Of a stretch of 64,000 bases of DNA, positions 27,190 through 54,576 are shown piece by piece. The notes under the pieces were generated by a model. That model saw nothing but the letters and a program-made list of their open reading frames with translations, was not told the DNA's origin and ran no database searches. Source of the stretch: an uncultured Bacilli bacterium (GTDB lineage: Bacteria > Bacillota_I > Bacilli_A > RF39 > UBA660); contig CALVZC010000006.1 in the NCBI GenBank assembly GCA_944372425.1, positions 202-64,201 on the forward strand. Direction: 5' to 3'. How positions within the stretch are numbered: position 1 is the stretch's first letter; each line of letters begins with the position of its first letter. The position numbers and the translations under genes were made by a program.

Positions 27190-27705
27190 ATGAGTAACAG
27201 AGATAAAAAAAATATTATGATTGTAGCTCTTTTAATAGCAGTTGTTTTTATGTCAGTAGGATATGCATTATTATCAACAAAATTAGACGTTCAGGGGACT
27301 TCAACAATAGTTGATCCAGTTTGGGATGTAGGAATTATATCAATAAGTGAAAATTCTACAGAAGGCTATGCTAATAGTTTAAATTCAACAGTTATTAATA
27401 AATTTTCAGCAAAATTTAATGTTGAATTGCAAATGCCAAATGATAAAGTCACATATACAATTAATGTCAAAAATGAGGGGACAATTGATGCTAAACTTAA
27501 TTCTATATCGATAATGCCAGAAGATTACAATGAGGGATTTATAAAATATGAAATAGAAGGAATAAAAGCAGGGGAAGTATTATCAGTAGGAGAAAGTAAA
27601 ACTTTCACTTTATCTGTTATGTATAACAGTGATGCAACTGGTCAGCCACAAGAAGAAGACTTAACTAAAGAAATTAGTTTAATACTTGATTATATCCAAA
27701 AATAA
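27190..27705 (+). CDS. Small secreted protein with a TasA/SipW-type signal region (cassette 1 cargo)
   Basis: 171 aa. N-terminal K-rich n-region, h-region, then GYALLSTKLDVQGTSTI. TasA-like PNDKVTYTINVKNEGTIDA strand motif. Confidence 0.75.
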   Translation: MSNRDKKNIMIVALLIAVVFMSVGYALLSTKLDVQGTSTIVDPVWDVGIISISENSTEGYANSLNSTVINKFSAKFNVELQMPNDKVTYTINVKNEGTIDAKLNSISIMPEDYNEGFIKYEIEGIKAGEVLSVGESKTFTLSVMYNSDATGQPQEEDLTKEISLILDYIQK

Positions 27706-27731
27706 GTAATTTATTATAAGTTACTTTTTTT
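27704..27731 (+). terminator. Weak hairpin plus T-run after the cassette 1 cargo gene (possible attenuator)
   Basis: aagtaa/ttactt 6-bp stem, 11-nt loop, T7. Confidence 0.3.
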
Positions 27732-27771
27732 ACTTTATTATTGTTTGTAATAAAAAAATAATGGAGGATTT

Positions 27772-28917: not shown

Positions 28918-28925
28918 GAGGAACT

Positions 28926-31331: not shown

Positions 31332-31369
31332 TATATTAGAAAAAAGCAAATAGAGGAAAGAGGTAAAAA

Positions 31370-32377: not shown

Positions 32378-32403
32378 TATCTGTAATTATGTCAGGAGGT
32401 TTC

Positions 32404-33693: not shown

Positions 33694-33694
33694 T

Positions 33695-34792: not shown

Positions 34793-34793
34793 C

Positions 34794-35915
34794 ATGAGTA
34801 AGTTAAAAGTCATGGTAGTTGTTGGAACAAGACCAGAAATAATTAGATTGAGTGAAACTATTAAAGCAATAGATAAATATTTTAATTTAGTTTTAGTCCA
34901 TACTGGGCAAAACTATGATTACACATTAAATGAAGTGTTTTTTGAAGAATTTGGACTAAGAAAGCCTGATTATTATTTATCAACGCCAGGAAAACATTTA
35001 GGAGAAACAGTTGGAAATATTATTTCTAAATCTTATGAAGTAATTAGTAAAGAAAAACCAGATGCTATGTTAGTTTTAGGAGATACTAACAGTTGTTTAG
35101 CTGCTTATTCCGCTAAAAGATTAAAAGTTCCTATTTTTCATATGGAAGCAGGAAATCGTTGTTTTGATTTTAATGTTCCAGAAGAGATTAATAGGAGAGT
35201 AGTAGACCATTTAAGTGATGTCAATCTTGCTTATACAGAAAATGCTAGAAGATATTTGATAAATGAAGGAATTAAAAATGATTTTCTATATGTTACTGGT
35301 TCTCCTATGAAGGAAGTAATTTTTAGCAATATGAAAAATATTGAAAAGTCTGATGTTTTAAAAAAATTAGGTTTAACTAAAAATAAATATTTTGTTGTTA
35401 GTGCTCATCGTGAAGAAAATGTTGATATTAAAGATAATTTTAATAGTTTAATGAATAGTCTTAATAAAGTTGCTGATACTTATAAGATTCCAATTATCTT
35501 TTCAACACATCCAAGAACAGCAAAAAGAATAAAAGAAAGTAATATTGTTTTAAATCCTTTAATAAAAAATATGGAACCATTAGGCTTTTTTGAATATGTA
35601 AAATTACAAATGAATGCTTTTTGTGTTTTGTCAGATAGTGGTACTATACCTGAAGAAAGTGATATTTTGAATTTTCCAGGTGTATCTTTAAGAACAAGTA
35701 CTGAAAGACCAGAAGCACTTGATGCTGGTAGTATAGTTTTAGGTGGGATAAATGAAAAAGATATTTTAAGCTCAATCGAATTAGCAATTAATTCTAGAAA
35801 AGATAGAGAAGAAAATTTAGTTAGAGATTATAAAGATACTAATGTATCATTAAAAGTAGTTAAAATAATTCAAAGTTATTATAATATTGTAAATATTAGA
35901 ACTTGGAAAAAATAA
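34794..35915 (+). CDS. capG: UDP-N-acetylglucosamine 2-epimerase (non-hydrolysing), CapG/FnlC type
   Basis: MSKLKVMVVVGTRPEIIRLS start. The track's 34743 start lies inside capF. Confidence 0.9.
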   Translation: MSKLKVMVVVGTRPEIIRLSETIKAIDKYFNLVLVHTGQNYDYTLNEVFFEEFGLRKPDYYLSTPGKHLGETVGNIISKSYEVISKEKPDAMLVLGDTNSCLAAYSAKRLKVPIFHMEAGNRCFDFNVPEEINRRVVDHLSDVNLAYTENARRYLINEGIKNDFLYVTGSPMKEVIFSNMKNIEKSDVLKKLGLTKNKYFVVSAHREENVDIKDNFNSLMNSLNKVADTYKIPIIFSTHPRTAKRIKESNIVLNPLIKNMEPLGFFEYVKLQMNAFCVLSDSGTIPEESDILNFPGVSLRTSTERPEALDAGSIVLGGINEKDILSSIELAINSRKDREENLVRDYKDTNVSLKVVKIIQSYYNIVNIRTWKK

Positions 35916-35933
35916 TTATAGTGAGGTGTTATT

Positions 35934-36668
35934 ATGAAGGTTATAGGAGTAATTCCAGCAAGATATAAATCAAGTAGATTAGAGGGTAAACCTTTAAAAG
36001 ATATTTGTGGAAAGCCAATGATTTGGTGGGTTTACCAAAAAGTTTTAAAAGTAAAGGAAATTGATGAAGTTTATGTAGCAACTGATGACGAAAGAATAAT
36101 GAACACTTGCAAAGAGTTAAATATAAATGCTATTATGACAAGAGACGATCATAAAATGATGCTTGAAAGAGTATGGGAAGTATCTGAAAAAATTCCTGGA
36201 GATATTTATGTTTCTGTAGCAGGTGATGAACCTTTGATTGAACCAGAAAACATTGCAAAAGTAATTAAACCTTTATTAAAAGATAAAAATTTACTTGTTT
36301 CAAACTTGAAGACTAAAATAACTAATCCAGTAGATTTAGTAAATTGGACAACAATGAAGGTTGTTTGTAATGAGCAAAATGATATTATCCTTGCATCACG
36401 TTCTCCAATCCCATATCCAAAGGCAACAACAGAAGTTATTTATTACAAACATATGGGAACTTATGCTTTAAGAAAAGAAGCTTTAAATTTTTTCTATAAT
36501 AAGGAAAAAGGAAATATTGAATCAATTGAAGACTTTGATTTATTAAGATTTTTAGAAAATCATATTACTGTTAGAGCTGTCGAAGTTAAATCACAAACAG
36601 TATCTGTTGATACTCCAAAAGATTTAGAAAGAGTCAGAGATATTATAAATAAAAACATGAATAGGTGA
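35934..36668 (+). CDS. kdsB: KdsB-family cytidylyltransferase (CMP-Kdo synthetase-like)
   Basis: IPARYKSSRLEGKPLKDICGKPMI, GDEPLIEP and VDTPKDLERVR align with E. coli KdsB as I recall it. The H.SGT.R segment is altered to HKMMLER. Confidence 0.65.
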   Translation: MKVIGVIPARYKSSRLEGKPLKDICGKPMIWWVYQKVLKVKEIDEVYVATDDERIMNTCKELNINAIMTRDDHKMMLERVWEVSEKIPGDIYVSVAGDEPLIEPENIAKVIKPLLKDKNLLVSNLKTKITNPVDLVNWTTMKVVCNEQNDIILASRSPIPYPKATTEVIYYKHMGTYALRKEALNFFYNKEKGNIESIEDFDLLRFLENHITVRAVEVKSQTVSVDTPKDLERVRDIINKNMNR

Positions 36669-36672
36669 TGTT

Positions 36673-39600
36673 ATGAAAGAAAAAATATTACTTTTAACTG
36701 ATATACCACCATGTACAAATTATACTGGTGGAATAATGCTTTCACAATTAGTTAGATTTTTAATAGAAGAAAAAATAGAAGTTGAATATTATTCTATTGA
36801 AGATCCGTATTTGAATGCTAAAATAGATACAACTGTAAGTGATGAGGTAAAGTTAATTAGAGTTAATAGGCCTAATGAGATTATTTCTAAAAAGAATACA
36901 TACAACAATTTTAGTAAAAAATTAAAAGCAGTTATAAAATCCGTAAAAAATTATATTAGTAGTAATAGTTTTTCTAAGATTTGGATTGTAATTCAAGGGG
37001 AGGTTATGACTGAAATAGCATACCATATTATGAATGATAAAAATTATAAATATATTGTTCAAATATGGGATCCAATAGAATGGTGGACTAAGGAGCATAA
37101 ATTCGATAAAGAAAGAGAAAAAAAAGTATTAAATAAGCATGACGAAGTGTTAAAAAATGCTGAATGTTGTATTACTACTTCAGAAGCAATGACTGAATAT
37201 TTTAATAAAAAATTAGGGATAAATTGTATAGAGGTTATGCCACCATTAAAAAAAGTTAATTTTGTATCATCTAAAACAAAAAAAGAAAAAGATAAATTTG
37301 TTATTGCTATGAGTGGACAAGTATATTCGCAAGATGAATTAGAAGCTTTATTTCTAGCTTTAGATAGTATGTCATGGAAGATTGGAGATAAGAACATCTA
37401 TTTTGAGCATTATGGTAGTTGGTATAATAGTCAAGATTTTATTAATGAAAGAGAGAAATATAAAGATAGAATAATTTGTCATGGATTTGTTCATCAGTCT
37501 ATGTTATTAAGTTATTTGAGCAATGCAGATTTGTTATATTGCCCATACTTTTTTTCTAAGGATAAAGCGTTAAAAAAAGTTTCAGAATTATCATTTCCAA
37601 GTAAATTAATTACTTATTTATCTTTAGATGTTCCAGTTTTGATGCATGGACCAAATTATGCAAGTCCAGTAAAATTTCTAGAAAAGTATAACGCTGGATA
37701 TGTAATAACTAGTGATAATCCTAATGATATAGCTAAAAAATTAACTAATATAGCTAGTTTAAATTCAAAAGAAATCTTAATTAATGCTAGAAAAGTTTTT
37801 GAATCTAATTTTACTTATGAAGTAGTAAAAAATAACTTTTTTAAAGCATTGAATATTGGCTATGATAATGAGAAAAAGTTACATATTTTAGAAGTAAATA
37901 ATGTTGATTTATCTGGTAGAAGATTTAATGGTTACGATTTGTCAGAAGAAATTAATACAACGACAAATAATCAAGCAAGACAAATAGTAGTATATAAATC
38001 TTCAGATAATGATGATGTTAAAACTTTTTATCCAAATAATAGGGGTATATCTTTAGATTGGTCTTTAATTGAGAATGAACAAAAAGAACTGTCTGTTCAT
38101 TCTCAATTGTCACTAACTTCTAATGTTCTAAAAAATAATGATTATTTTATAAATGCTGATTTAGTACATTACCATTTGATTCATAATACAAAATTATCTT
38201 TGTATCAAATGATAGAACTATGTTCTAATAAGCCATCTGTATTTACTTTTCATGATCAATGGAATTTTACCGGTAGATGTGTTAATCCACAAGAATGTGA
38301 AAAATGGAAAACAGGGTGTCACAATTGCCAATATTTAAATACATTATTTCCTTTTTTAGAAGATAATTGTCATTCGCTATGGAAATTAAAAAAATATGTA
38401 TATGAGAACTTAGATGTTGACATTGTAGTAAGCACTAAGTTTATGAAAGAAATGATTGAAACTTCACCTTTGACTAAGTGTTTTAAACATGTTCATGTTA
38501 TCCCATTTGGAATAGATTTGGAAAAATTTAAAAAAAAACTAACAAAAGAAGAAGCAAGAAAAAAATTAAAATTACCTGTTGATGATGTTGTAATTTTTTT
38601 CCGTTCACAAATGGCTGCTAAAGGAACAGAATATATAGTTGATGCGATGAAACAATTAAAAACTAATAAAAAGATAACATTATTAAGTTGTAGTGAAATT
38701 GGAAATTTAGACTCTTTAAAAGACAAATATAATGTCGTTGATTTAGGAAATATCGACAATGATAAAATGTTTCTTGCATACGATGCTTGTGATTTCTTTC
38801 TAATGCCATCACGAGGTGAAAGTTTTGGACTTATGGCAATAGAAGCAATGGCTTTTTCTAAAACTGTTGTTGTATTTAATAATACATCTTTACCAGAGGT
38901 TACTTTTGCCCCTGATTGTGGTGTTTTAGTTGAAAATAAAAACTCTAAAAAGTTAATGGAAGCTATAAAGATGTTAATTGATAATCCAGACGAATGTGAA
39001 AGACGTGGAAATTTAGGTAGAAAATTAGCAGAAGAACATTATGATATTAAGCTTTATAATGAACGCATTAAAAAAATGTATGATGAAGCCTATAAACGCC
39101 AGAAAGATAAACCTGTTAAGATACAAGATATGAAAATTGATTATAATTTAATTGATGTTAAAGTTTTAGCATATAAATTAAAAAAGATCTATAAAAATAT
39201 GTATCATATTGATATGAAAGATGATATATTTAAAAATATTAAGGAAATAAGTTTACCAAATTATAAAATAGATTATTCAAATATAAATGTTCAAAATCTT
39301 ATATATCAATTTAACTTAAGTATATATAAAAAGTATTTAGAAATCGAAGCAAGTAAAACTAATAAATATACAAAAGGCTTTTTCAACATGTTAAGGTATG
39401 ATAGAGAGCATCTTTTAGTAGCAATAGATAATAGATTGAAAAAAATTCCAGTTTTGTATCCAATTATAAAAATAATTGCTAATGTTTTGTACTTTGTTTA
39501 TAGAATATTTAGGAGATTAAAGCGTATTCTATTTAATGACTATGCAAATAAAGCTAAAAAAGATATTGAAGAATTAAATAAAGTTATAGATAATCTAAGT

Positions 39601-39687
39601 GAAGAAATAGCATCTTTAAAATATGAAAATGAATTACTTAATAATGAAATCTTGCAATTAAAGAAGAAAAGTAATAAGAAGGTGTAA
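36673..39687 (+). CDS. Large dual-domain glycosyltransferase (two GT-B/GT4-like modules) with a hydrophobic/coiled-coil C-terminal tail
   Basis: 1004 aa. GESFGLMAIEAMA EX7E-type motif in module 2. Hydrophobic segment IPVLYPIIKIIANVLYFVY and heptads near the C-terminus. Confidence 0.7.
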   Translation: MKEKILLLTDIPPCTNYTGGIMLSQLVRFLIEEKIEVEYYSIEDPYLNAKIDTTVSDEVKLIRVNRPNEIISKKNTYNNFSKKLKAVIKSVKNYISSNSFSKIWIVIQGEVMTEIAYHIMNDKNYKYIVQIWDPIEWWTKEHKFDKEREKKVLNKHDEVLKNAECCITTSEAMTEYFNKKLGINCIEVMPPLKKVNFVSSKTKKEKDKFVIAMSGQVYSQDELEALFLALDSMSWKIGDKNIYFEHYGSWYNSQDFINEREKYKDRIICHGFVHQSMLLSYLSNADLLYCPYFFSKDKALKKVSELSFPSKLITYLSLDVPVLMHGPNYASPVKFLEKYNAGYVITSDNPNDIAKKLTNIASLNSKEILINARKVFESNFTYEVVKNNFFKALNIGYDNEKKLHILEVNNVDLSGRRFNGYDLSEEINTTTNNQARQIVVYKSSDNDDVKTFYPNNRGISLDWSLIENEQKELSVHSQLSLTSNVLKNNDYFINADLVHYHLIHNTKLSLYQMIELCSNKPSVFTFHDQWNFTGRCVNPQECEKWKTGCHNCQYLNTLFPFLEDNCHSLWKLKKYVYENLDVDIVVSTKFMKEMIETSPLTKCFKHVHVIPFGIDLEKFKKKLTKEEARKKLKLPVDDVVIFFRSQMAAKGTEYIVDAMKQLKTNKKITLLSCSEIGNLDSLKDKYNVVDLGNIDNDKMFLAYDACDFFLMPSRGESFGLMAIEAMAFSKTVVVFNNTSLPEVTFAPDCGVLVENKNSKKLMEAIKMLIDNPDECERRGNLGRKLAEEHYDIKLYNERIKKMYDEAYKRQKDKPVKIQDMKIDYNLIDVKVLAYKLKKIYKNMYHIDMKDDIFKNIKEISLPNYKIDYSNINVQNLIYQFNLSIYKKYLEIEASKTNKYTKGFFNMLRYDREHLLVAIDNRLKKIPVLYPIIKIIANVLYFVYRIFRRLKRILFNDYANKAKKDIEELNKVIDNLSEEIASLKYENELLNNEILQLKKKSNKKV

Positions 39688-40692
39688 TTGATGAAAAAGC
39701 CAAAAGTATCAATAATAATACCTGTATATAATGGTTCATTATATTTAGAAGAAGCTATTGAATCAGCAATTAATCAAACTTATTGCAATATAGAGGTTAT
39801 TGTTGTTAATGATGGTAGCAATGATAATAATAAAACTAGATTAATTGCCGAAAAATATAAAAATAAAATTAAATATTTTGAGAAAGAAAATGGCGGTGTT
39901 TCAACAGCTTTAAATTTAGGTATTAAAAAGATGACAGGAAGTTATTTTTCTTGGCTAAGTCATGATGATAAATATAAGCCGGATAAAATAGAAAAGCAAA
40001 TTAAATATTTATTTGATAATAATTTATTAAATAGTAATGTTATATTATATGGTGATTTTGAGGCAATAGATAAAAAATCAAAGTATTTATGGACAGAAAG
40101 AAAAGATCATAATATTTCTATTGATAAACCTGAATATATTCTTTTAAGGGGACAAATAAATGGTATTACTTTATTGATACCAAAGAAGGCTTTTGATGAT
40201 TGTGGTTTATTTGATGAAAAACTTCGTTGCACTCAAGATTATGAGCTTTGGAATAAGATGTGTAGTAAATACAAATTTATTCATTTACCTTATATTGTTG
40301 CTGAGTCTAGATTTCATCCTAATCAAGTAACTAATAAAAGTCCGTTAGTCATTACTGAAGGAAATAAATTATGGTTAAAACTAATTAAAAATGTTCCTGA
40401 TAATAGAAAAAAAGAATTGGAAGGATCATTATATGCCTTCTATATGGAAATGCTAAATTTTATTAAAGATTCTGGATATGATGAAGTTATATCCTATTGT
40501 AGAAAACAAGTTGAAAAAATGGAAGATAATATTAAGTATAATGATGATGTAATTAATTATCAAAAAAGAAAAAAAAATGAAACTATTAGAAAAGACAATA
40601 AGAGCATAACAAAAAAAATAAAATTATCTATAAAGACTGTTGGAGTAAGAAAAACATTAAAAAAGATTATTGATAAATTTAATAAAAGTTAG
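39688..40692 (+). CDS. Family 2 glycosyltransferase
   Basis: VSIIIPVYNGSLYLEEAIES...NDGS.D motif. An ATG at 39691 is an alternative start. Confidence 0.85.
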   Translation: MMKKPKVSIIIPVYNGSLYLEEAIESAINQTYCNIEVIVVNDGSNDNNKTRLIAEKYKNKIKYFEKENGGVSTALNLGIKKMTGSYFSWLSHDDKYKPDKIEKQIKYLFDNNLLNSNVILYGDFEAIDKKSKYLWTERKDHNISIDKPEYILLRGQINGITLLIPKKAFDDCGLFDEKLRCTQDYELWNKMCSKYKFIHLPYIVAESRFHPNQVTNKSPLVITEGNKLWLKLIKNVPDNRKKELEGSLYAFYMEMLNFIKDSGYDEVISYCRKQVEKMEDNIKYNDDVINYQKRKKNETIRKDNKSITKKIKLSIKTVGVRKTLKKIIDKFNKS

Positions 40693-40750
40693 CTTCTTTT
40701 TTATTTGCTCATTTATAACTAACGTGATAAAATTTGTTTAGGGTGTTAGA

Positions 40751-43339
40751 ATGAAAAAGAAATATTTGTGGTTAAGTGTTTTTATATTGGGTGTTTTAAG
40801 TGTTATTTATATTATTAAAGGTATATTTCCTTTTGGTAATGAATCAGTTATTTGGAGTGATATGCATGAGCAAATAACAGCAATTTATTATCATTTTTAT
40901 GATGCAATAAGGGGTAATTCTTCTGTTTTGGTCGATTTTACTTCTGGTGGAGGAGTTAATTTTGTTGGTATATTAGCTTATTATATTTTAAGCCCATTTA
41001 CTTTACTTTTACTTTTATTTCCTCGTGATTTAGTGGAAAATGCTGTTTCTATTGTGGTGGCTTTAAAAATACTTGCTTCTGGAATTACTTGTTTATACTT
41101 TTTAAGTAAAACATTTAAAAAAGTTAATTCAAGTTATCAAGTATTATTATCTATTTTATATGCTTTTTCTAGTTACACTTTAGCTCTTTATATTATTACT
41201 CCATGGATGGATTTAGTTTATCTTTTTCCACTATTAATGTTCGGTTTAAGAAAGCTTCTTGATTTAGAAGATACTAAAGTATATATTATAGTTCTTAGTA
41301 TTTGTTTAATATGTTCTTTTTACGTTTCTTTTATGATTCTTTTATTTATTATTATTACGTCTTTAATATATTTATTAATTTATAATAAAAATAATAGAAA
41401 AAAAGCTATTTTTAATTTAGGTGTTTCAACAGTTATTTCTCTATTAATTTCTTCAATAGTTTTAATTCCAAGTTTTATTCAAATTTTTGATTCTCAAAGA
41501 GCAGGATTTGATTTAAATGTAATTTTAAATTCTAAATTTGGTCCACTTTCTGATAAAATTTCATTTTTATTTGGTAGTACTATATTATTTGCTTTTGCTT
41601 TATTATTAATTTTTAATTATAAAAAACATAAGAATTTCAGTTTATTTCTATTATTAAATTTATTTATATTAATGCTTCCATTAATTATAGAACCTCTTAA
41701 TAAAATGTGGCATTTTGGAAGTTATGTATATTTTTGTTATCGTTATGGGTTTATCTTAATTTTTATGTTAGTTGTAGGAGCAGCTTATTACTTAAATAAT
41801 ATCGATGTTAAAAAAGATTATTCATTTAAAATTAAAAGAATATTACCAATTTCTTTATTTGCTTTTTCTTTATTGATAATGATTTTTATATTTATTAAGT
41901 TTCGTATTAATATTTTAGAAGCAATTGACCAGTTAACTTTAACTAGAGATAAAAAAGCTTTATTTTCTCTTTTTATTGTTTCTTTATTTGTTTTTATTGT
42001 TACCTTTAGTTTAATCTTTACTAATAAAAAGAATGAAAGATTTACTATATATTTTATTTATTCTTTATCAATAGTTCAAATTTTATTTAATTGTTATTTT
42101 TATTTTAATAGAGAAGATAGCATTATTTTAGCTAAACAATACGATTGGATGTTAGAATTGAATAATGTTGATGAATTAAAGAGTAATTATTATGTTAAAG
42201 AAATTAATAGAGATTTAATTAGTAATTATGGAATGGTTTCTGGTGTTAAAACTTTTTCTAATTTTACATCTCTTACAGATAAAACTAATTTTTTTACTAT
42301 GCAGAGATTAGGATATGATTCATATTGGATGGATACAGAATCAATTGGTGGAAATCTGTTTACTGATATAGTATTAGCACAGAAGTATATAATTTCTAAA
42401 GCTAATTTTAATGATTCTTATTATTCATATGTAAATAATATTAGTGGCCTTAATTATTACAAATTTAATTCAAATATGTCTTACGGATATTTTATTAAAG
42501 AAAATAATTCATTAATTAATTCTAAAAATAGTTATGATGCTAGTAATATTATTTATAAGTCTATTACTGGTAATGATAATTTATTTGATATATATGATCT
42601 TTTTGTTAATAAGAATAATAAAATAAATTTTTATGAAAAAGGTATTTTAATTGATAAAGATATTGAGATTAAAGGAAGAAGAAGATTATATTTAGAGATA
42701 TTTACAGATTATGATAGCTATGTAAAAAACAATAATTATAATGGTTTTGATATTTATATTAATGATAAAATTTTTACAAAAAATTATCCTAATGATGATA
42801 GAAATGGTAGTATTTTTTTAGGTGAATATTCAAATAATACTGTTAATATTAAAATAGTTTCAGTAAAAAATACTAAAGTTAGAAATATTACAATCGGTAG
42901 TTTGGATTTAGATAAATTAGATAATTTTATAAACAATAATTATATTAATAATTTAAGTGTAAATTTTAATAGGAATTCTATTGATGTTAATGTTGATGGA
43001 AAAAAAGGTGATATTTTATTTCTTCCAATAACTTATTTAGATGGTTATAAATCTAATACTCACGAAATTTTTAGAGTGTTTGATAATTTCGTAGGTATAA
43101 GGCTTAAAAATGGTAGTAATTCTATTGAGATTACCTATACTCCTAAAGGAATTATTTTAGGTAGTATTCTTTCTCTTATTGGTATTTTAATGTTTATTGT
43201 TTGGGAAAAATATCTTAATAAGTTAAATTTTAATATATTATATACGTTGTTTTATTTCATTTATTTAATTATTTATATTTTTCTTGTTTTCATTTTTTAT
43301 ATTTTAATGCCTTTATTTTTTATTAAATCATTTTTTTGA
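40751..43339 (+). CDS. YfhO-family polytopic membrane protein (GT-C-like glycosyl transferase)
   Basis: 862 aa, more than 12 TM segments in the N-terminal two thirds. PFGNESVIWSDMHEQ N-terminal motif, a large extracytoplasmic C-domain and a terminal TM. Confidence 0.65.
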   Translation: MKKKYLWLSVFILGVLSVIYIIKGIFPFGNESVIWSDMHEQITAIYYHFYDAIRGNSSVLVDFTSGGGVNFVGILAYYILSPFTLLLLLFPRDLVENAVSIVVALKILASGITCLYFLSKTFKKVNSSYQVLLSILYAFSSYTLALYIITPWMDLVYLFPLLMFGLRKLLDLEDTKVYIIVLSICLICSFYVSFMILLFIIITSLIYLLIYNKNNRKKAIFNLGVSTVISLLISSIVLIPSFIQIFDSQRAGFDLNVILNSKFGPLSDKISFLFGSTILFAFALLLIFNYKKHKNFSLFLLLNLFILMLPLIIEPLNKMWHFGSYVYFCYRYGFILIFMLVVGAAYYLNNIDVKKDYSFKIKRILPISLFAFSLLIMIFIFIKFRINILEAIDQLTLTRDKKALFSLFIVSLFVFIVTFSLIFTNKKNERFTIYFIYSLSIVQILFNCYFYFNREDSIILAKQYDWMLELNNVDELKSNYYVKEINRDLISNYGMVSGVKTFSNFTSLTDKTNFFTMQRLGYDSYWMDTESIGGNLFTDIVLAQKYIISKANFNDSYYSYVNNISGLNYYKFNSNMSYGYFIKENNSLINSKNSYDASNIIYKSITGNDNLFDIYDLFVNKNNKINFYEKGILIDKDIEIKGRRRLYLEIFTDYDSYVKNNNYNGFDIYINDKIFTKNYPNDDRNGSIFLGEYSNNTVNIKIVSVKNTKVRNITIGSLDLDKLDNFINNNYINNLSVNFNRNSIDVNVDGKKGDILFLPITYLDGYKSNTHEIFRVFDNFVGIRLKNGSNSIEITYTPKGIILGSILSLIGILMFIVWEKYLNKLNFNILYTLFYFIYLIIYIFLVFIFYILMPLFFIKSFF

Positions 43340-47681: not shown

Positions 47682-48078
47682 AGAAAAAAAACGCGGTTTA
47701 GGTAAATTTTTTGCAGGTCTTGCAGTAGGGGCAGGACTAGGAATTTTGTTTGCACCTAAAAAAGGTAGTGAGACAAGAGAGGATTTAAAAAATTTGTTTG
47801 ACGAGATGATAAAAAAAGTAAAAAGTATTAAGCCTGAAGAAGTTAAAGAAACGATTGAAAAAAAAATTGAGGAGATTAAAACAAGTTTAGCGGAGTTAGA
47901 TAAAGAAAAAGTACTTGCTATTGCAAAAGAAAAAGGAATTCAAATAAAAGAAAAATGTGAATCTTTAGTAGCTTATGCAAAGGAAAAAGGGACTCCTGTT
48001 ATAGAAAAAACTGCTAGAGATTTAAAAGTAAAAGCAGCAGATGTTGTTCGTGATGTGTTGGAAAAATTAGAAAAATAA
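47674..48078 (+). CDS. YtxH-domain protein
   Basis: GKFFAGLAVGAGLGILFAPKKGSETREDLK is the YtxH signature. Confidence 0.8.
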   Translation: MSKEKKRGLGKFFAGLAVGAGLGILFAPKKGSETREDLKNLFDEMIKKVKSIKPEEVKETIEKKIEEIKTSLAELDKEKVLAIAKEKGIQIKEKCESLVAYAKEKGTPVIEKTARDLKVKAADVVRDVLEKLEK

Positions 48079-48331
48079 AAAAACTAATGGCAAAAATGTC
48101 AAGAAGTATTGTGAAAATTTAATTTTATCTTTACAATTCTTCTTTTTTGTTTTAAAATAAAACTGTGAATAATACAGAGTGTGTGATTTTAATTTAAGCT
48201 TTTCTATTAGAAAAAAGATTTATTATAAGTTTATTTACAATATAAAAAATGATTTCTACAATAGTAATTTTTTTTAAAAGTTAGTTTAAATTAAAGCTAC
48301 CACATTTATTTATTCAAATAGGAGGAAAAAA

Positions 48332-48922
48332 ATGGAAAAAGATCGAAAAACAAAAGTTTTGGCTGTAATAGCAATAATCATAGCAGTAGTTAGTTTAACT
48401 ATTGGTTTTGCAGCATTTAGTACCACATTGTCAATTGATGGTACAGGAGATGTTAAGTCATCTTCATGGAAGGTAAGGTTTGAAAATTTACAACCTGTTC
48501 AAAGGGTAGGTACGGCAGTAGAAACAACTGCACCAACAATTAATACTAATGATACAACTATTAGTAATTTTGATGTAAGTTTCACAACTCCAGGAGACTC
48601 AGTTAGTTATACATTTGATATAGCTAATAAAGGAACATTTGATGCTGAGATTACTAGTATAAATATTCCAACACCTACATGTCAAGGAACAGGTACAAAC
48701 GCTGAACAAGATGCTACTAATGTATGTAATAATTTAGAGTATAAGCTAACTTATACTGATGGTGGAGCACCTTTAGCACAAACTGATACTTTAAACAAAG
48801 GTGAAAAAAAGAATGTTACACTTACTTTAACGTATAAAGATACTATTGGTGAAGCAGAACTTCCACAAGATAATGTTGACATTAATACTTTAGGAATTAG
48901 CATTGTTTATTCACAAAGATAG
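48332..48922 (+). CDS. Small secreted protein with a TasA/SipW-type signal region (cassette 2 cargo)
   Basis: 196 aa. IGFAAFSTTLSIDGTGDV after the h-region, and PGDSVSYTFDIANKGTFDA. Paralog of 27190..27705, with a Cys-flanked insert. Confidence 0.75.
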   Translation: MEKDRKTKVLAVIAIIIAVVSLTIGFAAFSTTLSIDGTGDVKSSSWKVRFENLQPVQRVGTAVETTAPTINTNDTTISNFDVSFTTPGDSVSYTFDIANKGTFDAEITSINIPTPTCQGTGTNAEQDATNVCNNLEYKLTYTDGGAPLAQTDTLNKGEKKNVTLTLTYKDTIGEAELPQDNVDINTLGISIVYSQR

Positions 48923-48935
48923 ATAATTGTAATAA

Positions 48936-48966
48936 AAAAGTACAGTTATTTTATAACTGTACTTTT
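48936..48966 (+). terminator. Strong hairpin after the cargo gene (terminator/attenuator)
   Basis: aaaagtacagttat/ataactgtactttt, a perfect 14-bp stem. Confidence 0.6.
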
Positions 48967-48996
48967 AAATATATAAGGCATTTATTGGGGTAAAAT

Positions 48997-50130
48997 ATGA
49001 AACAAAGTGAAAAAAATATATTAATTATTGAATTTATTTTTATGGCAATACTTATTTTAAATGCTTTCTTATTTAGAATTGAAAATACTATTCTGATAAG
49101 TATTTTTCTGTTGATTTTTTTAATAATATCTATTGAAGTTTTGGGTTATGAAAAAGATAGACATCGCTATAAAAAAGATGGTATTTTACTTGGGATTATT
49201 TTTGCATCAGGTTTTCAAATATTTATATATTTATTAGGGCTTATAACAGGATTCTTAGAAAATGGATATAGCTTAAAACTAATTAATATTTTTAGAAATA
49301 CTTTACCAAATTTAATACTAATAATAATAACAGAATTATTTCGTTACCAACTTATAACAAAAAGTCAGAAAAGAAAATCATTAAAACTATTAACTACAAT
49401 ATTATTTATTGTGTTAGATATTGTTATTATGATTCCTTTGTATAACTTATATGATTCTAGAAATTTTATTGAGTTTTTATCTATTATTGTTATTCCAAGT
49501 ATCTCAAAAAATATATTATTTACTTATTTTATATTAAAATTTGGATATTTAACTAATATATGCTATAGAGTAATAATGGAACTAACAATTTATATAGTTC
49601 CTATTTTACCGAATATTAATATTTATTTAGATTCAGTTTTTAAGTTTACTTTTCCAATTATTATATTAATGTGTTTACAAAAAATATTAAACGAAAAAAA
49701 GGATATAGAAGTAAGAAAACCTAAAATTTTAAAAATAGTTGATGTCTTTGTTACTTTATTTTTGTTAATTGTTGTATTTTTAACTAGTGGTATTTTTAGT
49801 CATTATGCACTAGTAATAGGATCAGATTCAATGAATCCAAACATAAATAAAGGAGATATAGTTATTGTTAAAAAAATTAAATCTGAGCAAATTGAAAATA
49901 TTGAAGTTGGAGATATTTTAGTATTCAACATGAGAAACAAAGTAGTAGTACACAGAGTACAGAAAATAAATGATAATAATAACAGGATATCGTTTATAAC
50001 AAAAGGTGATAACAATATTGATGTAGATAATTGGGTTGTTAACGAAAATGATGTTATAGGTATAGTAACTGCAAAAATACCAATAGTTGGTTATCCTACT
50101 GTATGGTTAAATGAAATGATAGGAGGATGA
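48997..50130 (+). CDS. Polytopic membrane domain fused to an ER/archaeal-type (SipW-like) signal peptidase I
   Basis: 377 aa. About 8 TM segments, then GSDSMNP, VVHRVQ, TKGDNNIDVDNW. Paralog of 27772..28917. Confidence 0.8.
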   Translation: MKQSEKNILIIEFIFMAILILNAFLFRIENTILISIFLLIFLIISIEVLGYEKDRHRYKKDGILLGIIFASGFQIFIYLLGLITGFLENGYSLKLINIFRNTLPNLILIIITELFRYQLITKSQKRKSLKLLTTILFIVLDIVIMIPLYNLYDSRNFIEFLSIIVIPSISKNILFTYFILKFGYLTNICYRVIMELTIYIVPILPNINIYLDSVFKFTFPIIILMCLQKILNEKKDIEVRKPKILKIVDVFVTLFLLIVVFLTSGIFSHYALVIGSDSMNPNINKGDIVIVKKIKSEQIENIEVGDILVFNMRNKVVVHRVQKINDNNNRISFITKGDNNIDVDNWVVNENDVIGIVTAKIPIVGYPTVWLNEMIGG

Positions 50131-50137
50131 AAATAGA

Positions 50138-51244
50138 ATGAGTGATGAGAAGAACATAAAAAATAGTAATCTTTACCAATCTTTTACAAAGAGAAAAAAA
50201 AGAAGTCGCGCAATAATGTTAATTCTTTTATTAATATCTTTGTTCTTAATTATATTATCTTCTGTATTTTTAAAATCATCAATGAATTTTAAAGATAACT
50301 TTATCAATTATAATGAAAAAGGAGATATTAATTATAAAGTATATTTAAAAGATAATGATTATTATGATGAACCATTTTTAGATAAGGGCATGCAATACAT
50401 TGCAAGTTTAATTAATACTATAAATGTTGACTTTAAATATGAAATTAATTCTTCTGATGAATTATCTTATAAATATAAATATAAAATAACTGGTGATTTA
50501 GTAATAACTGAAAAAAATAATCCTAGCAAGGTTTTGTACAAGAATACGGAAATTTTATTAGAAGAAACTGCAAAAGAGATAACTGATAGTTCATTTGTTA
50601 TTAACGAAGATTTAGATATTAATTATGATAAATATAATGAATATGTTGTTGCATTTCAAAAGGATTATTCTTTGAGTGTCGACAGTAATTTAGTGTTGAC
50701 TTTAGCAGTTGAAACTGTTGGAGAGAACAATATATTAGTTAATAATTTTAATAAAAATAGTAATTTAATTGTTTCTGTTCCTTTATCAGAACATACAATA
50801 AGTATTACAACTGATTTAAATTCACTTAATGGATCAGGAATAATTAGAAGCACTGAAATTGTTAAAATAGATAATGTAATGTTATTCGTTTTAAGTATAT
50901 CTTTAGGATTAATTGGTTTAATAATTCTTATATCTATTGTTTATCTTTATCTATCAAAAAATAATAATAACAATCTTTATGAAAAAGAAATAAAGAATAT
51001 TCTTAAAAACTATGATCGTTTAATTGTTAGTAGTAAAGTATTAGATATAGATGAAAATAAATTTCAAAATAAAGTTCGTGTTACAAGTATTGAAGAACTT
51101 ATTGATGTATATGAAACTACAAAGCAACCGATTATTTATTATGAAGTTATTCCAAATGAAAAAAGTTATTTTATAATTATAAATGATGATACATTATATA
51201 AATTAACAATATCAAAAGAATGGTTAGAAGAAAATAAAAAATAA
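50138..51244 (+). CDS. Bitopic membrane protein, cassette 2 third gene (possibly DUF5305-like)
   Basis: 368 aa. Same architecture and shared motifs as 28926..29999. Confidence 0.7.
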   Translation: MSDEKNIKNSNLYQSFTKRKKRSRAIMLILLLISLFLIILSSVFLKSSMNFKDNFINYNEKGDINYKVYLKDNDYYDEPFLDKGMQYIASLINTINVDFKYEINSSDELSYKYKYKITGDLVITEKNNPSKVLYKNTEILLEETAKEITDSSFVINEDLDINYDKYNEYVVAFQKDYSLSVDSNLVLTLAVETVGENNILVNNFNKNSNLIVSVPLSEHTISITTDLNSLNGSGIIRSTEIVKIDNVMLFVLSISLGLIGLIILISIVYLYLSKNNNNNLYEKEIKNILKNYDRLIVSSKVLDIDENKFQNKVRVTSIEELIDVYETTKQPIIYYEVIPNEKSYFIIINDDTLYKLTISKEWLEENKK

Positions 51245-51263
51245 TAATTATTTAGATTGTAGG

Positions 51264-51292
51264 AAAACTCTGGAAAAACTGGAGTTTTTTTT
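51264..51292 (+). terminator. Intrinsic terminator after cassette 2
   Basis: aaaactc/gagtttt stem plus T-run. Confidence 0.45.
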
Positions 51293-51426
51293 CAATAGTA
51301 AATCCTATCATACAATAAAATGACATGTGTATATAAAATACTCATGCTTTTAAATTTTCTAATATAGCTTGCTATAAATATTAGAATATAGTAAAATTTA
51401 ACTATAAAATAGAAAGAAGGTAAAAA

Positions 51427-51483
51427 ATGGGATTTAGGAATACAAACAAATATTCGAGTGGGGGGGGGGGGACACTTTACTAA
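51427..51483 (+). other. 18-codon upstream ORF containing the G12 tract
   Basis: AGAAGG RBS plus ATG. MGFRNTNKYSSGGGGTLY, then a stop. Confidence 0.35.
51460..51471 (+). repeat. Homopolymeric G12 tract
   Basis: 12 consecutive G by hand count, in an otherwise very AT-rich intergenic region. Confidence 0.95.
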
Positions 51484-51603
51484 ATTAGAAGCCTTTACCT
51501 TAAAAGATAAAATAGGTTTAATCATAATATTAAAAGAAATAATGACAATATTCATATATGAAATAAGAAATAAATTGATATATGAAAGGCGTGAAGTAAT
51601 ATT

Positions 51604-52986
51604 ATGATAAAACCAAAAATAATGTTTTTAATAACAATAACAATTTTAGGATTATCAATAGGATATGGAGCTTTTAATGCTGAATTATCGATAAGTGGAG
51701 AAGCAACAGTTAATGGTCAGAGATATAAAGAAGAAATATTAAATGGAACAGAACCGAAGTTAGAAGAACCATTAATAGCAGTAACAATAGAAGATGATGG
51801 AACAGTAAAGAAAGCAGATTTAACAAGTAAGTGGTATAGTTATGAAGAAAAAAGATGGGCAAATGCAGTAATATTAAAAAATGAAAATAAAGAATATGTT
51901 AGTGGAGAAATAATACCAGAAGAAGAAATAGAGAGTTATTTTGTATGGATACCGAAGTATAGTTATAAGTTATGGGATTTAGGAAATTATACAGATTGGA
52001 CAGAAATAGATGAAAATAAAGTACATGCAATAGAAATAAGATTTGGGACAACAAATACTACTGATAGTGTTTCTGGAGAATGTACAACACCAGGAATATC
52101 AGGAGAGAGTGGAAACTGTGAAGTAGGAGATTACATGACCCATCCAGCTTTTTTAGCATTTAATACAACAGGGATGTGGGTAGGAAAGTTTGAAACAGGA
52201 TATAGTGGAGCAACAAGTGTAAGTGAAGCAGAAAAGAACACAACAGAAGTAGATAAAGTAATAGTAAAACCGAATGTATATAGTTGGAGAAGTATACAAT
52301 TATCCAATGCCTTTACAGTAAGTTATAATTATAAAAGAGAGTTAGAATCCCATATGATGAAGAATACTGAATGGGGAGCAGTAGCCTATTTATCACATTC
52401 TATATATGGAATAAATTATGAAATAAGAATAAATAATAATTCTAATTTTTTAACAGGATATGCAGCAACAACAGAAAACGGAAGTGGAAGTACAACAGAT
52501 GTAGCAATGTGGAACACACCTACAGGTTATTTAGCGAGTACAACAGGAAATATAACAGGGATATATGATATGTCAGGAGGATCAGAAGAACATGTAATGG
52601 GAGTAATGAAAGATGCAAATGGGAATTTAATGTCAGGTTATGATTCTACTTCTAATTCAGGATTTAATGGAACATTATATGATGGAAGTAGTATAACAAA
52701 TGGAATAGATTTTCCAGATAGTAAATATTATGATGTTTATAATTACAATAAAAGCCATACTAATTATTCACGAAGAATATTAGGGGATGCAACAGGAGAG
52801 ATGGGACCATTTGATTATGTATCATCATGGTATAATGATAATGCATCTTTCGTTTATCCTTTATCCCCTTGGTTCGACCGTGGGGGCCACTATTTCGATC
52901 GTTCTGGAGCTGGTGCGTTCTTTTTCGACTACTACTACGGGCATGCTTACAGAACCATTTCTTTCCGTTTGGTTTTGTGCATATAG
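51604..52986 (+). CDS. Secreted protein with a SipW-type signal region and a C-terminal FGE/C-type-lectin-like domain
   Basis: 460 aa. IGYGAFNAELSISGEATV after the h-region. GIYDMSGG, RGG and SFRLV motifs, typical of the FGE-sulfatase / CLec fold. Confidence 0.75.
   Translation: MIKPKIMFLITITILGLSIGYGAFNAELSISGEATVNGQRYKEEILNGTEPKLEEPLIAVTIEDDGTVKKADLTSKWYSYEEKRWANAVILKNENKEYVSGEIIPEEEIESYFVWIPKYSYKLWDLGNYTDWTEIDENKVHAIEIRFGTTNTTDSVSGECTTPGISGESGNCEVGDYMTHPAFLAFNTTGMWVGKFETGYSGATSVSEAEKNTTEVDKVIVKPNVYSWRSIQLSNAFTVSYNYKRELESHMMKNTEWGAVAYLSHSIYGINYEIRINNNSNFLTGYAATTENGSGSTTDVAMWNTPTGYLASTTGNITGIYDMSGGSEEHVMGVMKDANGNLMSGYDSTSNSGFNGTLYDGSSITNGIDFPDSKYYDVYNYNKSHTNYSRRILGDATGEMGPFDYVSSWYNDNASFVYPLSPWFDRGGHYFDRSGAGAFFFDYYYGHAYRTISFRLVLCI
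52848..52980 (+). other. Adenine-depleted, GC-rich 3' coding tract (candidate DGR variable region)
   Basis: Over 52861-52980 I count 16 A of 120 nt and about 59 G+C, against roughly 45-50% A just upstream. Encodes HYFD...FFFDYYYGHAY. Confidence 0.45.
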
Positions 52987-53006
52987 TTTTTCCACTTGTG
53001 GAAAAA
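52987..53006 (+). other. Hairpin immediately after the stop codon
   Basis: tttttcca(c)/(g)tggaaaaa, an 8-9 bp stem with a 2-4 nt loop. Confidence 0.6.
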
Positions 53007-53086
53007 CTTAACCCTGATCTTTGTGGTTTAATGAATAAACAAAGTATATAGATAGACAGATTTAATAGTAGAAGAATATTTTAATT

Positions 53087-53121
53087 ATGCCGATTGCGTG
53101 CGTTTGCAATCGGCATTTTTA
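53087..53121. terminator. GC-rich terminator between convergent genes
   Basis: atgccgattgc/gcaatcggcat 11-bp stem plus T-run. Confidence 0.75.
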
Positions 53122-54576
53122 TTTTATTTTTTTAATACTAGTTTCTTTAGTATTTTCTTTTTCATATCCTGTTATATCTTCTAACATTTTGTACTGAAAT
53201 GCTAAATCAATACATTTATGAATTATTTCATCTCTATCCCATGCATATCTAGTAGAATCAATCATTTTTTTACCATTAGGTAATATTATACTTTTTTGTT
53301 TTCCGTTAGTGATTATTCTTTCTTTTTGATTACTATCTATAAATGTCATTCTATTATGACTTCTATTACTTAATAATGAAAAATTAATATTATTTATTGG
53401 GTCTACAGTTAATTGTGTTCCACTCCATCCAGCTATTGCAAAACTTTTACCGCTTAGTGAATGATGCACTTCACCACTATTAGGCAGTGGGTGTTTTGAA
53501 TAACATAACATTGCTAAATATTGTGAATACTTATCTTTTCCATCATCAGTTACATAGTGAAAACCACATCTATTTTTTGCCATGTAATCTCTTGTGTTAA
53601 AATTTATAATTTTGTTATCTATTAATGCTCTTGCAAGTTTTGTCATATCACTTGAATTAGAAAATAGACCAGCATGACCACTTAGTATTCCTTGTGGTTG
53701 ACCTAATATTCTTGCTTTATCATCAGTTGATACTCCAACAGGTGATGTTGTTCTTATTAGGTAATTTCCATCTTTATAGTATCTTCCGTCATAATTTGAA
53801 TTTGCAACATTTTCTAAATTTTCCTCTGGTATTTTAACAAATGTATTATACATTCCTAAATTATTTAGAATATTTTTAGAAAGATATTCGTAATAAGACA
53901 TTCCACTTGCACTTTCAATTACGTATTTTAATACCATAGGTGCAAAGTCGTTGTATTTATTTGCTCCATATGGTATTTCTTTTTTTGAAGTAGTAAATAA
54001 AATTTCTTCTGCTTCTTTTACATCTTTTGCTTTATCAATTCTTGTTTTTGTTTCAAGTGGTTCAAATGTTAATAAATCAAAAATAGTAATACCTTTTAGG
54101 TTTTCAAATTGTGGTGCATATTCTGTTACGTCTTCTGATAAATCTATTTTTCCTTCTTCAACTAATTTAAGTATAGTAATTGCTGTAAATAGTTTTGTAC
54201 ATGATGCTAAGTCAAAGATAGTATCATGATTCATTTCTTTTTGACTAGGAATAAAAGTCCCTTCATCTAGAATAGTTTCTTCACGATTTCCAATAACTAA
54301 TTGTTCTTGAAATGTTTTAGTACCATAGGAAATTACAGCACCTGGAGCCATTTTTTTTATATAAAAAAAATCTTTTAATAAATCTTCTATTCCAGACTTT
54401 TTATAAAGTTCATTACGTAATTCATCAATATTTGCATCTTTATGTTTATTAAGTACTTCCAAAACATCTTTTAATAGTCTTTCATATTGTTCTTTTGGAT
54501 ATAGATTCTTTTGTGTTTCATCTGCTCCAATATTTTGATTTTTTATTAATTGATTAAGATAATCATTATAACTCAT
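53119..54576 (-). CDS. Beta-lactamase-fold serine hydrolase (class C / esterase family VIII-like), apparently cytoplasmic
   Basis: 485 aa. SxxK motif SCTK and a YxN-like KYND. No signal peptide. Confidence 0.7.
   Translation of the reverse strand: MSYNDYLNQLIKNQNIGADETQKNLYPKEQYERLLKDVLEVLNKHKDANIDELRNELYKKSGIEDLLKDFFYIKKMAPGAVISYGTKTFQEQLVIGNREETILDEGTFIPSQKEMNHDTIFDLASCTKLFTAITILKLVEEGKIDLSEDVTEYAPQFENLKGITIFDLLTFEPLETKTRIDKAKDVKEAEEILFTTSKKEIPYGANKYNDFAPMVLKYVIESASGMSYYEYLSKNILNNLGMYNTFVKIPEENLENVANSNYDGRYYKDGNYLIRTTSPVGVSTDDKARILGQPQGILSGHAGLFSNSSDMTKLARALIDNKIINFNTRDYMAKNRCGFHYVTDDGKDKYSQYLAMLCYSKHPLPNSGEVHHSLSGKSFAIAGWSGTQLTVDPINNINFSLLSNRSHNRMTFIDSNQKERIITNGKQKSIILPNGKKMIDSTRYAWDRDEIIHKCIDLAFQYKMLEDITGYEKENTKETSIKKIK

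Follow-up and report, generated by a model that had tools for sequence, protein, structure and literature searches.

What is produced by a compact set of genes that an uncultured bacterium keeps in two strongly diverged versions? This question is raised by a stretch of 64,000 nucleotides (GC content 25.7%) from an uncultured Bacilli bacterium of the GTDB lineage Bacillota_I; Bacilli_A; RF39; UBA660 (assembly GCA_944372425.1, contig CALVZC010000006.1, positions 202 to 64,201), the whole of which is referred to below as the window. A preliminary description, made from the letters alone, had recognized a three-gene module for a cargo protein, a fusion peptidase and a bitopic membrane protein, and had taken its downstream copy (cassette 2) for an ancient, diverged paralog of the upstream copy (cassette 1). 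According to our analysis, which combines sequence comparison, structural models and analogy with known systems, cassette 2 and the gene next to it likely form a module for an extracellular fibre of the AbpX type within the TasA superfamily.

Cassette 2 consists of three tightly packed open reading frames (ORFs) on the plus strand (48332–51244; 196, 377 and 368 amino acids, aa). Its counterpart, cassette 1 (27190–29999; 171, 381 and 357 aa), has the same gene order, and each gene of cassette 2 has a full-length counterpart there, so the shared architecture was correctly described. The quoted peptide strings were all recovered in the translations of the cassette 2 ORFs, including the Cys-flanked TPTCQGTGTNAEQDATNVCNN. 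The description of cargo, peptidase and partner was borne out, while the system to which they belong, a TasA/AbpX-type donor-strand fibre in our reading, had been left unnamed; the module was also drawn one gene too short, since the ORF at 51604–52986 has the same signal and donor-strand motif. The features on which the argument is based are as follows.

27190–27705, plus strand: cassette 1 cargo, 171 aa, GYA↓LLSTKLDVQGT, without the Cys loop (ORF, BLASTP)
27772–28917, plus strand: cassette 1 peptidase, 381 aa, with the same fusion of eight-helix and signal peptidase I domains (family models, BLASTP)
28926–29999, plus strand: cassette 1 DUF5305 protein, 357 aa (PF17231, BLASTP)
48079–48331, plus strand: upstream intergenic region, a candidate promoter only, with sigma-70-like hexamer pairs at 48130–48158 and 48234–48262 (consensus scan)
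48332–48922, plus strand: cargo 2, putative AbpX-like fibre subunit precursor, 196 aa (AlphaFold2, AF2; Foldseek; hhalign)
48936–48966, plus strand: hairpin and U run behind the cargo gene and before the peptidase gene, with partial termination or attenuation as its probable role (fold, conservation in the relative locus L001)
48997–50130, plus strand: peptidase 2, whole gene, 377 aa (ORF)
48997–49701, plus strand: N-terminal eight-helix membrane domain of peptidase 2, aa 1–235 (AF2, Foldseek)
49702–50130, plus strand: linker, ninth transmembrane (TM) helix (aa 243–263) and extracytoplasmic signal peptidase I domain of peptidase 2 (TIGR02228)
50138–51244, plus strand: cassette 2 DUF5305 protein, 368 aa (PF17231)
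51245–51603, no strand assigned: spacer of 359 bp with a G12 tract and an 18-nt inverted repeat (sequence)
51604–52986, plus strand: 460-aa protein, probable cap, tip or anchor (minor) subunit (motif, hhalign)
53087–53116, plus strand: strong intrinsic terminator, the likely end of the transcription unit (terminator scan)

The cargo is central to the fibre reading. In cargo 2, a signal peptide (aa 1–27; 48332–48412) with the predicted cleavage GFA↓AF is followed by the putative donor strand AFSTTLSIDGTGDV (48413–48454) and by a beta-sandwich core. The AF2 model (23 homologs, pLDDT 87) contains a signal helix, unstructured residues 30–47 and a beta-sandwich, and its best structural matches in the PDB were all subunits of donor-strand-complemented fibres. 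The Pyrobaculum AbpA bundling pilus (7ueg; E 7.6e-4, probability 0.99) and the Bacillus TasA fibre (8aur; E 9.9e-4, probability 1.00) were the top matches by Foldseek, and Fim subunits and the Sulfolobus thread Saci_0406 (7pnb, rank 6) were also found. Cys117 and Cys132 (48680–48727) flank a 14-residue insert. The extra Cys-flanked loop that had been pointed out in this cargo proved to be a lineage trait, with both Cys nearly invariant in the cassette 2 cargo lineage and absent from the cassette 1 cargo.

The relation to AbpX was detected with a profile (A4) built from 21 diverse cargos of both cassette types. According to a preprint of January 2026, AbpX of Pyrodictium abyssi forms a donor-strand fibre in a Ca2+-dependent manner; the AbpX sequence was taken from the supplement of that preprint (10.64898/2026.01.04.697558). 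By hhalign, the A4 profile matched AbpX from the signal peptide to the C-terminus (93.2% probability, E 3e-7, 166 columns), and the predicted AbpX cleavage TYA↓QWSETLSL fell exactly on GFA↓AFSTTLSI of cargo 2. The donor strand AFSTTLSIDG of cargo 2 aligned to QWSETLSLSA of AbpX, with L33 invariant and I35 nearly invariant. The match to Bacillus subtilis TasA, the sequence of which was validated against 8aur, covered only 26 columns around the PGD...N.G motif (6.3% probability). Both mature cargos are acidic (pI 4.26 and 12.4% Asp + Glu for cargo 2; pI 4.30 and 15.2% for cargo 1), as in the AbpX family with its low isoelectric point (pI ~4) and ~15% acidic residues (10.64898/2026.01.04.697558). 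Because of the end-to-end profile match and this acidity, both cargos were filed, on sequence and model grounds, as putative AbpX-type members of the TasA superfamily.

The same searches bear on a different reading, in which the cargo is a soluble or wall-associated secreted protein (a camelysin/M73-like protease, a carbohydrate-binding protein or an adhesin) that is matured and released by the peptidase without forming a fibre. It is suggested by sub-threshold Pfam matches to Peptidase_M73 (E 0.0047), CBM_2 and DUF11/CARDB-type Ig domains; however, all of them fall under the curated cutoffs, and Peptidase_M73 is itself the TasA/camelysin family. Moreover, the end-to-end AbpX match takes in the donor strand, and the strand behind the cleavage site is conserved in many paralogs and also occurs on unrelated large proteins, which suits an assembly tag better than a simple signal peptide. 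We therefore consider a non-fibre cargo unlikely. Apart from Peptidase_M73, the sub-threshold Pfam matches (PorV, CBM_2, DUF11, CARDB and HYDIN-like Ig) were set aside as generic beta-sandwich noise; PorV, which was also the only match of the cargo sequence search against the PDB, was judged spurious. No relevant NCBIfam family was found for the cargos, and neither has a curated family.

The second gene was predicted to encode the processing enzyme. Both peptidases matched TIGR02228, the archaeal/endoplasmic reticulum (ER)-type signal peptidase I model (93.6 bits for peptidase 2 and 76.4 for peptidase 1; cutoff 51.85), with the match confined to the last ~130 residues. The claim of a fusion peptidase with GSDSM and VVHRV motifs thus held up: an eight-helix membrane domain is joined to a TIGR02228 domain whose catalytic residues align to SEC11A. 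Residues S278 (GSDSM), H319 (VVHRV) and D338/D344 (TKGDNN..D) were invariant in 16 family members, the three motifs align to those of SEC11A, and human SEC11A and SEC11C are the closest solved relatives of the catalytic domain in both sequence and fold. The scores against the SipW equivalog NF046067 (59.1 and 57.7 bits) lie far under its cutoff of 190, and the sequences thus place the cassette peptidases as relatives of SipW that are not its orthologs.

A signal-peptidase-like protein may also serve as a non-catalytic chaperone of a sortase-type Gram-positive pilus, as in the case of SipA/LepA of Streptococcus pyogenes, and the peptidase model does match S. pyogenes SipA (4n31, E 7e-4, Foldseek). 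However, Ser, His and Asp of the catalytic site are invariant, the match to SEC11 is far better than that to SipA, none of the genes called on either side of the modules, whether in the window or in the relative loci, gave a sortase Pfam match, and the one C-terminus that was read (460-aa protein, ...FRLVLCI) has no LPXTG. With an intact triad and neither sortase nor LPXTG near the modules, a sortase pilus was rejected as extremely improbable. A type IV pilin with a class III signal was rejected as well, as the peptidase belongs to S26 and is not a prepilin peptidase.

More than 550 homologs of the peptidase were found in metagenomic data, almost all of 375–385 aa, which indicates that the fused architecture is the rule. 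In the AF2 model of peptidase 2 (pLDDT 82), an eight-helix bundle precedes the ninth TM helix and the catalytic domain. According to Foldseek, the N-terminal 235 residues resemble SpdC of the SagB–SpdC complex (6u0o_A; TM-score on target 0.60, 257 columns) and the CAAX protease Rce1 (4cad; TM-score 0.47–0.49). Ten such membrane domains, searched at Pfam E<=10, gave no PF02517 (CPBP) match and no other consistent family. Residues G81, Y91, N101, E113, R116, P202 and P205 are invariant and F137, D141, N172 and Y177 nearly so; E113, R116, D141 and N172 represent conserved intramembrane polar positions. The motifs of the CPBP/Abi family are EExxxR, FxxxH and HxxxN. The Glu-Arg spacing here is unlike that of EExxxR, and no conserved histidine was found within the domain in the 16-sequence alignment, which argues for likeness of fold only and not for membership in the CPBP family. 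A CPBP/Rce1/SpdC-like fold without catalytic histidines is thus treated as a lead from modelling and not as a result.

A library-wide phmmer search with the N-terminal domain returned 753 cluster representatives, nearly all of ~375–385 aa, and hence the domain appears to be essentially always fused to the peptidase. An 812-aa protein (P0351) in which it is joined to a metallophosphatase was judged a probable chimeric gene call and not accepted as a true fusion. The domain may dock the signal helix of the precursor or make the membrane thinner, in either case linking cleavage to assembly. Its CPBP-like fold is previously unreported; CAAX, CPBP and Rce1 are not mentioned in the AbpX preprint (10.64898/2026.01.04.697558).

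The third proteins of both cassettes matched DUF5305 (PF17231; 57.0 bits, E 2.5e-15 in cassette 2; 53.4 bits, E 3.1e-14 in cassette 1; cutoff 29). Both have two hydrophobic segments around a domain of ~190 residues, and the topology predicted for the cassette 2 protein includes a cytoplasmic N-terminus, TM 21–51, an extracellular domain, TM 241–275 and a cytoplasmic C-terminal domain. In the relatives examined, its gene is always directly downstream of the peptidase gene. We regard it as a putative accessory subunit of the signal peptidase or of the assembly machinery.

The gene order also recurs outside the window. The closest genome in the reference collection, a circular 1.31-Mb metagenome-assembled genome (MAG) of an uncultured Bacilli bacterium, carries all four genes in identical order, and the synteny of cargo(s), peptidase and DUF5305 is kept in relatives whose peptidases are 39–82% identical. 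In the distant ones (39–42%), two to five small genes with signal and donor strand lie 5' of the peptidase gene and DUF5305 directly 3'. One such locus (L003, 759–8918; peptidase 42% identical) has five donor-strand-tagged genes (204, 198, 798, 194 and 205 aa) upstream of a single peptidase, together with a longer DUF5305 protein of 593 aa.

Several observations weigh against an AbpX-type fibre. BLASTP of either cargo against AbpX was not significant, and the relation was detected by profiles only; a PDB profile search with the cargo alignment gave no match. The Foldseek E values are marginal (~1e-3), with TM-scores of 0.30–0.35, for which the signal helix in the model is partly responsible. 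The peptidase 2 model has nine membrane helices, whereas ten were given in the preprint (10.64898/2026.01.04.697558), and no LPXTG, SLH or sortase anchor gene was found near the modules. In AbpX, an acidic residue at position 4 of the donor strand has been tied to Ca2+-dependent assembly (10.64898/2026.01.04.697558). This position is Thr31 in cargo 2 and also Thr in cargo 1, and AbpX D18 aligns to Ser in the cargo profile alignment, which makes Ca2+ dependence of the cassette fibres uncertain. Several subunits of L003 keep Glu at position 4, as in AbpX. Position 2 is aromatic in cargo 2 (F29) and in the 460-aa protein (F) and is Leu in cargo 1.

The gene that follows cassette 2 was drawn into the module by its N-terminus. 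The strict motif G-[YF]-[AG]-x-[FL]-[SN]-x-x-L-x-[IV]-x-G occurs in only three ORFs of the window, those of the two cargos and of the 460-aa protein, in which the same signal peptide and donor strand (GYG↓AFNAELSISGEATV) precede a large unrelated domain. Against the cargo profile, only the N-terminal 45 columns of this protein aligned (89% probability, hhalign). Its large domain had no sequence match in Pfam, NCBIfam or PDB, and an exact-sequence look-up of the whole protein returned no record. The protein is kept in the relative L001 (471 aa), and the 798-aa protein of L003 is analogous, sharing only the N-terminal tag. As it has a donor strand and no AbpX-like acceptor domain, it would join the fibre at one end only and is a probable cap, adhesin or TapA-like nucleator/anchor subunit.

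The spacer in front of this gene measures 359 bp here and 33 bp in L001. It contains a G12 tract (51460–51471), 133 bp upstream of the gene, which is the sole G/C run of at least 7 in the window. The tract reads G9 and G11 in other samples, and 8 of 10 contigs from independent assemblies stop at or near it (window positions 51432–51572). Either phase variation, with the run of G as a contingency tract, or a problem in sequencing or assembling the homopolymer may explain this. The spacer also holds an 18-nt inverted repeat (51515–51532 / 51597–51614, 17 of 18 positions complementary), the second arm of which spans the start codon of the 460-aa gene. As RNA, the repeat is predicted to fold at -21.9 kcal/mol (z -5.7) with the AUG sequestered; it could equally flank a small invertible segment.

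The hairpin behind the cargo 2 gene (48936–48966) has a 14-bp stem followed by a U run (-18.3 kcal/mol, z -4.3) and is conserved in L001; cassette 1 has a hairpin of its own with U7 directly 3' of its cargo gene (27706–27771), AT-rich like that of cassette 2. In the consensus terminator scan of 47900–53200, a range that leaves the cassette 1 hairpin outside, the hairpin of cassette 2 was not reported, and the terminator at 53087–53116 was the sole one called. Two post-cargo hairpins and a lone called terminator 3' of the 460-aa gene suggest one transcription unit, attenuated after the major-subunit gene. The sigma-70-like hexamer pairs upstream of cassette 2 are weak, as such sites are no more numerous than in shuffled sequences.

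Is the likeness of the two cassettes real, and how old is it? In pairwise BLASTP with composition-based statistics, the cargos were 28% identical (E 4e-18), the peptidases 30% across all 377 residues (E 5e-40) and the DUF5305 proteins 28% across 336 residues (E 2e-18). The objection that the similarity might only reflect AT-rich composition failed, since Smith–Waterman scores against 300 shuffles gave z = 28 for the cargo, 37 for the peptidase and 20 for DUF5305, with 13 for the peptidase membrane domain alone and 15 for the mature cargo alone, i.e., 13–37 standard deviations (SD) over the shuffle mean. An ancient rather than recent duplication, as had been proposed, is indicated by the orthologs that each cassette has in other genomes (identity of 55–86% within and 24–35% between lineages, in all three components) and by a deep split in the tree. 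In a neighbour-joining tree of 40 peptidases, the two from the window lie on opposite sides of the midpoint root, each in a populated clade. Orthologs of the cassette 1 peptidase were found at 82–85%, 60%, 55% and 48% identity, in loci that again combine a 171–172-aa cargo, a peptidase and a DUF5305 protein. The orthologs of both cassettes in relatives ~82–90% identical occur on contigs of one same size (1,322,312 bp), suggesting that a close relative retains both.

The proposed check for co-evolution was carried out with eight modules, which were compared all against all for each component. The same deep division into two lineages was found for cargo, peptidase and DUF5305 alike. Peptidase identity was 55–62% within type 1, 37–82% within type 2 and 28–35% between the types; the corresponding values were 58–60%, 35–86% and 24–31% for DUF5305 and 68–76%, 23–90% (paralogous subunits counted in) and 24–32% for the cargo. 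This congruent split supports the divergence of the whole module, long ago, as a unit. The residues past the predicted cut are lineage-specific as well, A-F in type 2 (GFA↓AF) and L-L in type 1 (GYA↓LL). Together, the congruent divergence and these residues fit the suggestion that each peptidase and partner is dedicated to its own cargo, although they are not a proof of it. Under the best explanation, cassette 1 would be a paralogous module, separated long ago, in which another peptidase and partner serve to make another fibre, distinct from that of cassette 2.

The surroundings of cassette 1 raise the possibility that the modules make spore-associated structures, such as a coat or an appendage, and not vegetative biofilm or matrix fibres. 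A SpoVIF homolog (PF14069, E 4e-17; 26866–27105) is directly upstream of cassette 1, a cassette-1-type module lies between der/spoVIF and spoIVA in relatives, and one solved TasA entry (5of1) is titled "Spore coat-associated protein N." However, der...spoIVA-hbs is an old conserved gene neighbourhood of Bacillota, and the adjacency to spore genes may for this reason not be functional. Furthermore, cassette 2 is in an unrelated context, no spoIVA was found within the window, and the closest genome in the collection measures only 1.31 Mb. A sporulation role thus seems to us even less plausible than a non-fibre cargo; it is a matter of when and where the modules act and would agree with the same mechanism of assembly.

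In the relatives L007 and L008, the cassette-1-type module is placed between der/spoVIF and spoIVA-hbs, whereas in the window it is followed by a 13-kb glycosylation cluster (30375–43339) and no spoIVA. This cluster, between the two cassettes, contains GT2 and GT4 glycosyltransferases, a cytidylyltransferase, an 862-aa YfhO protein and, identified from the translations by eye, nucleotide-sugar dehydratase and epimerase ORFs; a FemAB gene follows it on the opposite strand. In L007, the gene immediately 5' of the cassette-1-type cargo gene encodes a reverse transcriptase (RVT_1; 951–2438, 495 aa), possibly that of a group II intron. Elsewhere in the window, core chromosomal genes are found (the S10 leader and ribosomal protein operon, ackA, der, ezrA, ftsY and ffh), along with the FemAB protein. 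The S10-Clostridia ribosomal protein leader (RF03136; 1400–1499; 35.4 bits, just over the gathering score) heads a run of short plus-strand ORFs, taken as a ribosomal protein operon; this shows the window to be part of the core chromosome of a Bacillota bacterium.

For the AbpX-type fibre, we propose the following course of assembly. The 196-aa precursor would enter the membrane by its N-terminal signal peptide and be exported by Sec, as its sequence suggests. The dedicated SEC11-like peptidase would then cut after Gly-Phe-Ala (G-[FY]-A), freeing the N-terminus AFSTTLSID...; its Ser278/His319/Asp triad is established by homology to SEC11 and SipW, and the presumed position of the cut follows from the alignment to the predicted AbpX site, which was used in the preprint for the recombinant mature protein (10.64898/2026.01.04.697558). 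By homology, the freed amphipathic strand would fill the open beta-sandwich groove of a neighbouring subunit (donor-strand complementation), and a fibre would result. Catalytic domain, eight-helix domain and DUF5305 protein are probably united in one membrane complex, by which the uncleaved subunit would be retained and its cleavage linked to assembly; this is suggested by the near-universal fusion of membrane domain and peptidase and by the adjacency of DUF5305 in every relative locus examined. The 460-aa protein would add at one fibre end only, as a cap, an adhesin or a TapA-like nucleator/anchor, and the hairpin behind the cargo gene probably ensures that mRNA for the subunit is more abundant than that for the machinery.

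These elements can be joined in a more far-reaching reading, which we regard as tentative and rather doubtful as a whole. Here, the eight-helix domain would be a degenerate CPBP/Rce1-type fold that, with DUF5305, forms a chaperone- and usher-free "cleave-and-polymerise" assembly platform; the two machines would prevent cross-polymerising of the two fibres, and the poly-G tract would make the cap or adhesin phase-variable. Within this reading, the membrane-anchored pre-subunit may dock at the conserved intramembrane polar site E113/R116/D141/N172, and cleavage may be directly coupled to donor-strand insertion.

Comparison with known systems places the AbpX-type fibre among its relatives. AbpX homologs in archaea, Bacillota and Chloroflexota adjoin a structurally distinct ten-TM signal peptidase I and a DUF5305 accessory protein, and abpX loci often also encode minor, tip or anchor subunits (10.64898/2026.01.04.697558). 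The window shares with them an acidic subunit of ~170–200 aa with a long signal peptide, an amphipathic N-terminal donor strand and an aromatic position 2, the adjacent many-TM signal peptidase I and DUF5305 genes, extra donor-strand-tagged subunits and the end-to-end profile match. It differs in that the acidic residue at position 4 and D18 are not conserved, the Cys pair is placed differently, nine instead of ten TM helices are predicted, and the surroundings contain neither LPXTG/SLH anchor genes nor genes for a histidine kinase or c-di-GMP; the host, moreover, is an uncultured Bacilli bacterium with a ~1.3-Mb genome of 26% GC and two diverged modules. As AbpX-type loci with a multi-TM signal peptidase and DUF5305 are already known (10.64898/2026.01.04.697558), cassette 2 is a new example and not a new kind.

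In the tapA-sipW-tasA operon of B. subtilis, a secreted fibre subunit likewise has a signal peptidase of the archaeal/ER type dedicated to its processing. The mature N-terminus A-F-x (AFNDIK in TasA) and the PGD...N.G motif are shared, and TapA, an accessory protein sharing the donor strand, is comparable to the 460-aa protein. However, the profile match to TasA is limited to 26 columns; SipW is not known to have an eight-helix N-terminal domain, nor the operon a DUF5305 gene. The gene order in B. subtilis is tapA, sipW, tasA, whereas here it is subunit, peptidase, DUF5305 and large subunit.

In the haloarchaeal Tat-fimbriae (tafi), a dedicated signal peptidase (TafD) and a DUF5305 partner (TafG) accompany the donor-strand subunits TafA/C/E, and peptidase/DUF5305 pairs are duplicated in some genomes (PMC11821415). 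For tafi, the requirement of the peptidase for subunit processing has been proved genetically: in Haloarcula, deletion of TafD blocks the processing of TafA and fibre formation (PMC11821415). Unlike the system described here, tafi use Tat signals, TafD has four TM helices and an N-terminal catalytic domain, and the subunits belong to a different clade of the TasA superfamily (PMC11821415).

Among solved structures, the catalytic domain comes closest to the eukaryotic signal peptidase complex (SEC11A/C; 7p2p, 7p2q; E 2e-5 by fold, 1.6e-10 to 3e-17 by sequence), in which the catalytic subunit also works with membrane accessory subunits. In contrast to that complex, extra membrane helices are fused to the catalytic subunit here, and the enzyme appears dedicated to few co-encoded substrates. 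A PDB profile search revealed no sequence relation of the fused helices to any solved chain, including the accessory subunits of the signal peptidase complex. The eight-helix domain superposes on Rce1 (4cad) and on the catalytically inactive SpdC (6u0o), but it differs from the CPBP/Abi fold family in the absence of a PF02517 match and of a conserved His and in its Glu-Arg spacing. With chaperone-usher pili (Fim, Pap), the module shares the N-terminal donor-strand logic; Fim is among the top fold matches, and in those pili, too, one-ended subunits cap the fibre. In contrast to them, it has no periplasmic chaperone or outer-membrane usher, belongs to a Gram-positive setting and is proposed to be triggered to assemble by removal of the signal peptide.

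Overall, TasA/AbpX-type fibres are emerging as a cross-domain route to extracellular matrices in bacteria and archaea, and our literature search brought up no experimental work on bacterial AbpX-type systems with a multi-TM peptidase and a DUF5305 partner. The two diverged modules represent a natural experiment on the specificity of peptidase and subunit, and the CPBP-like fold of the fused domain offers a testable lead on the coupling of cleavage to assembly. In conclusion, the retention of two complete ancient modules and of an extra donor-strand-tagged protein in a lineage whose closest genome in the collection measures only 1.31 Mb argues that the predicted fibres are important to the lifestyle of these bacteria.

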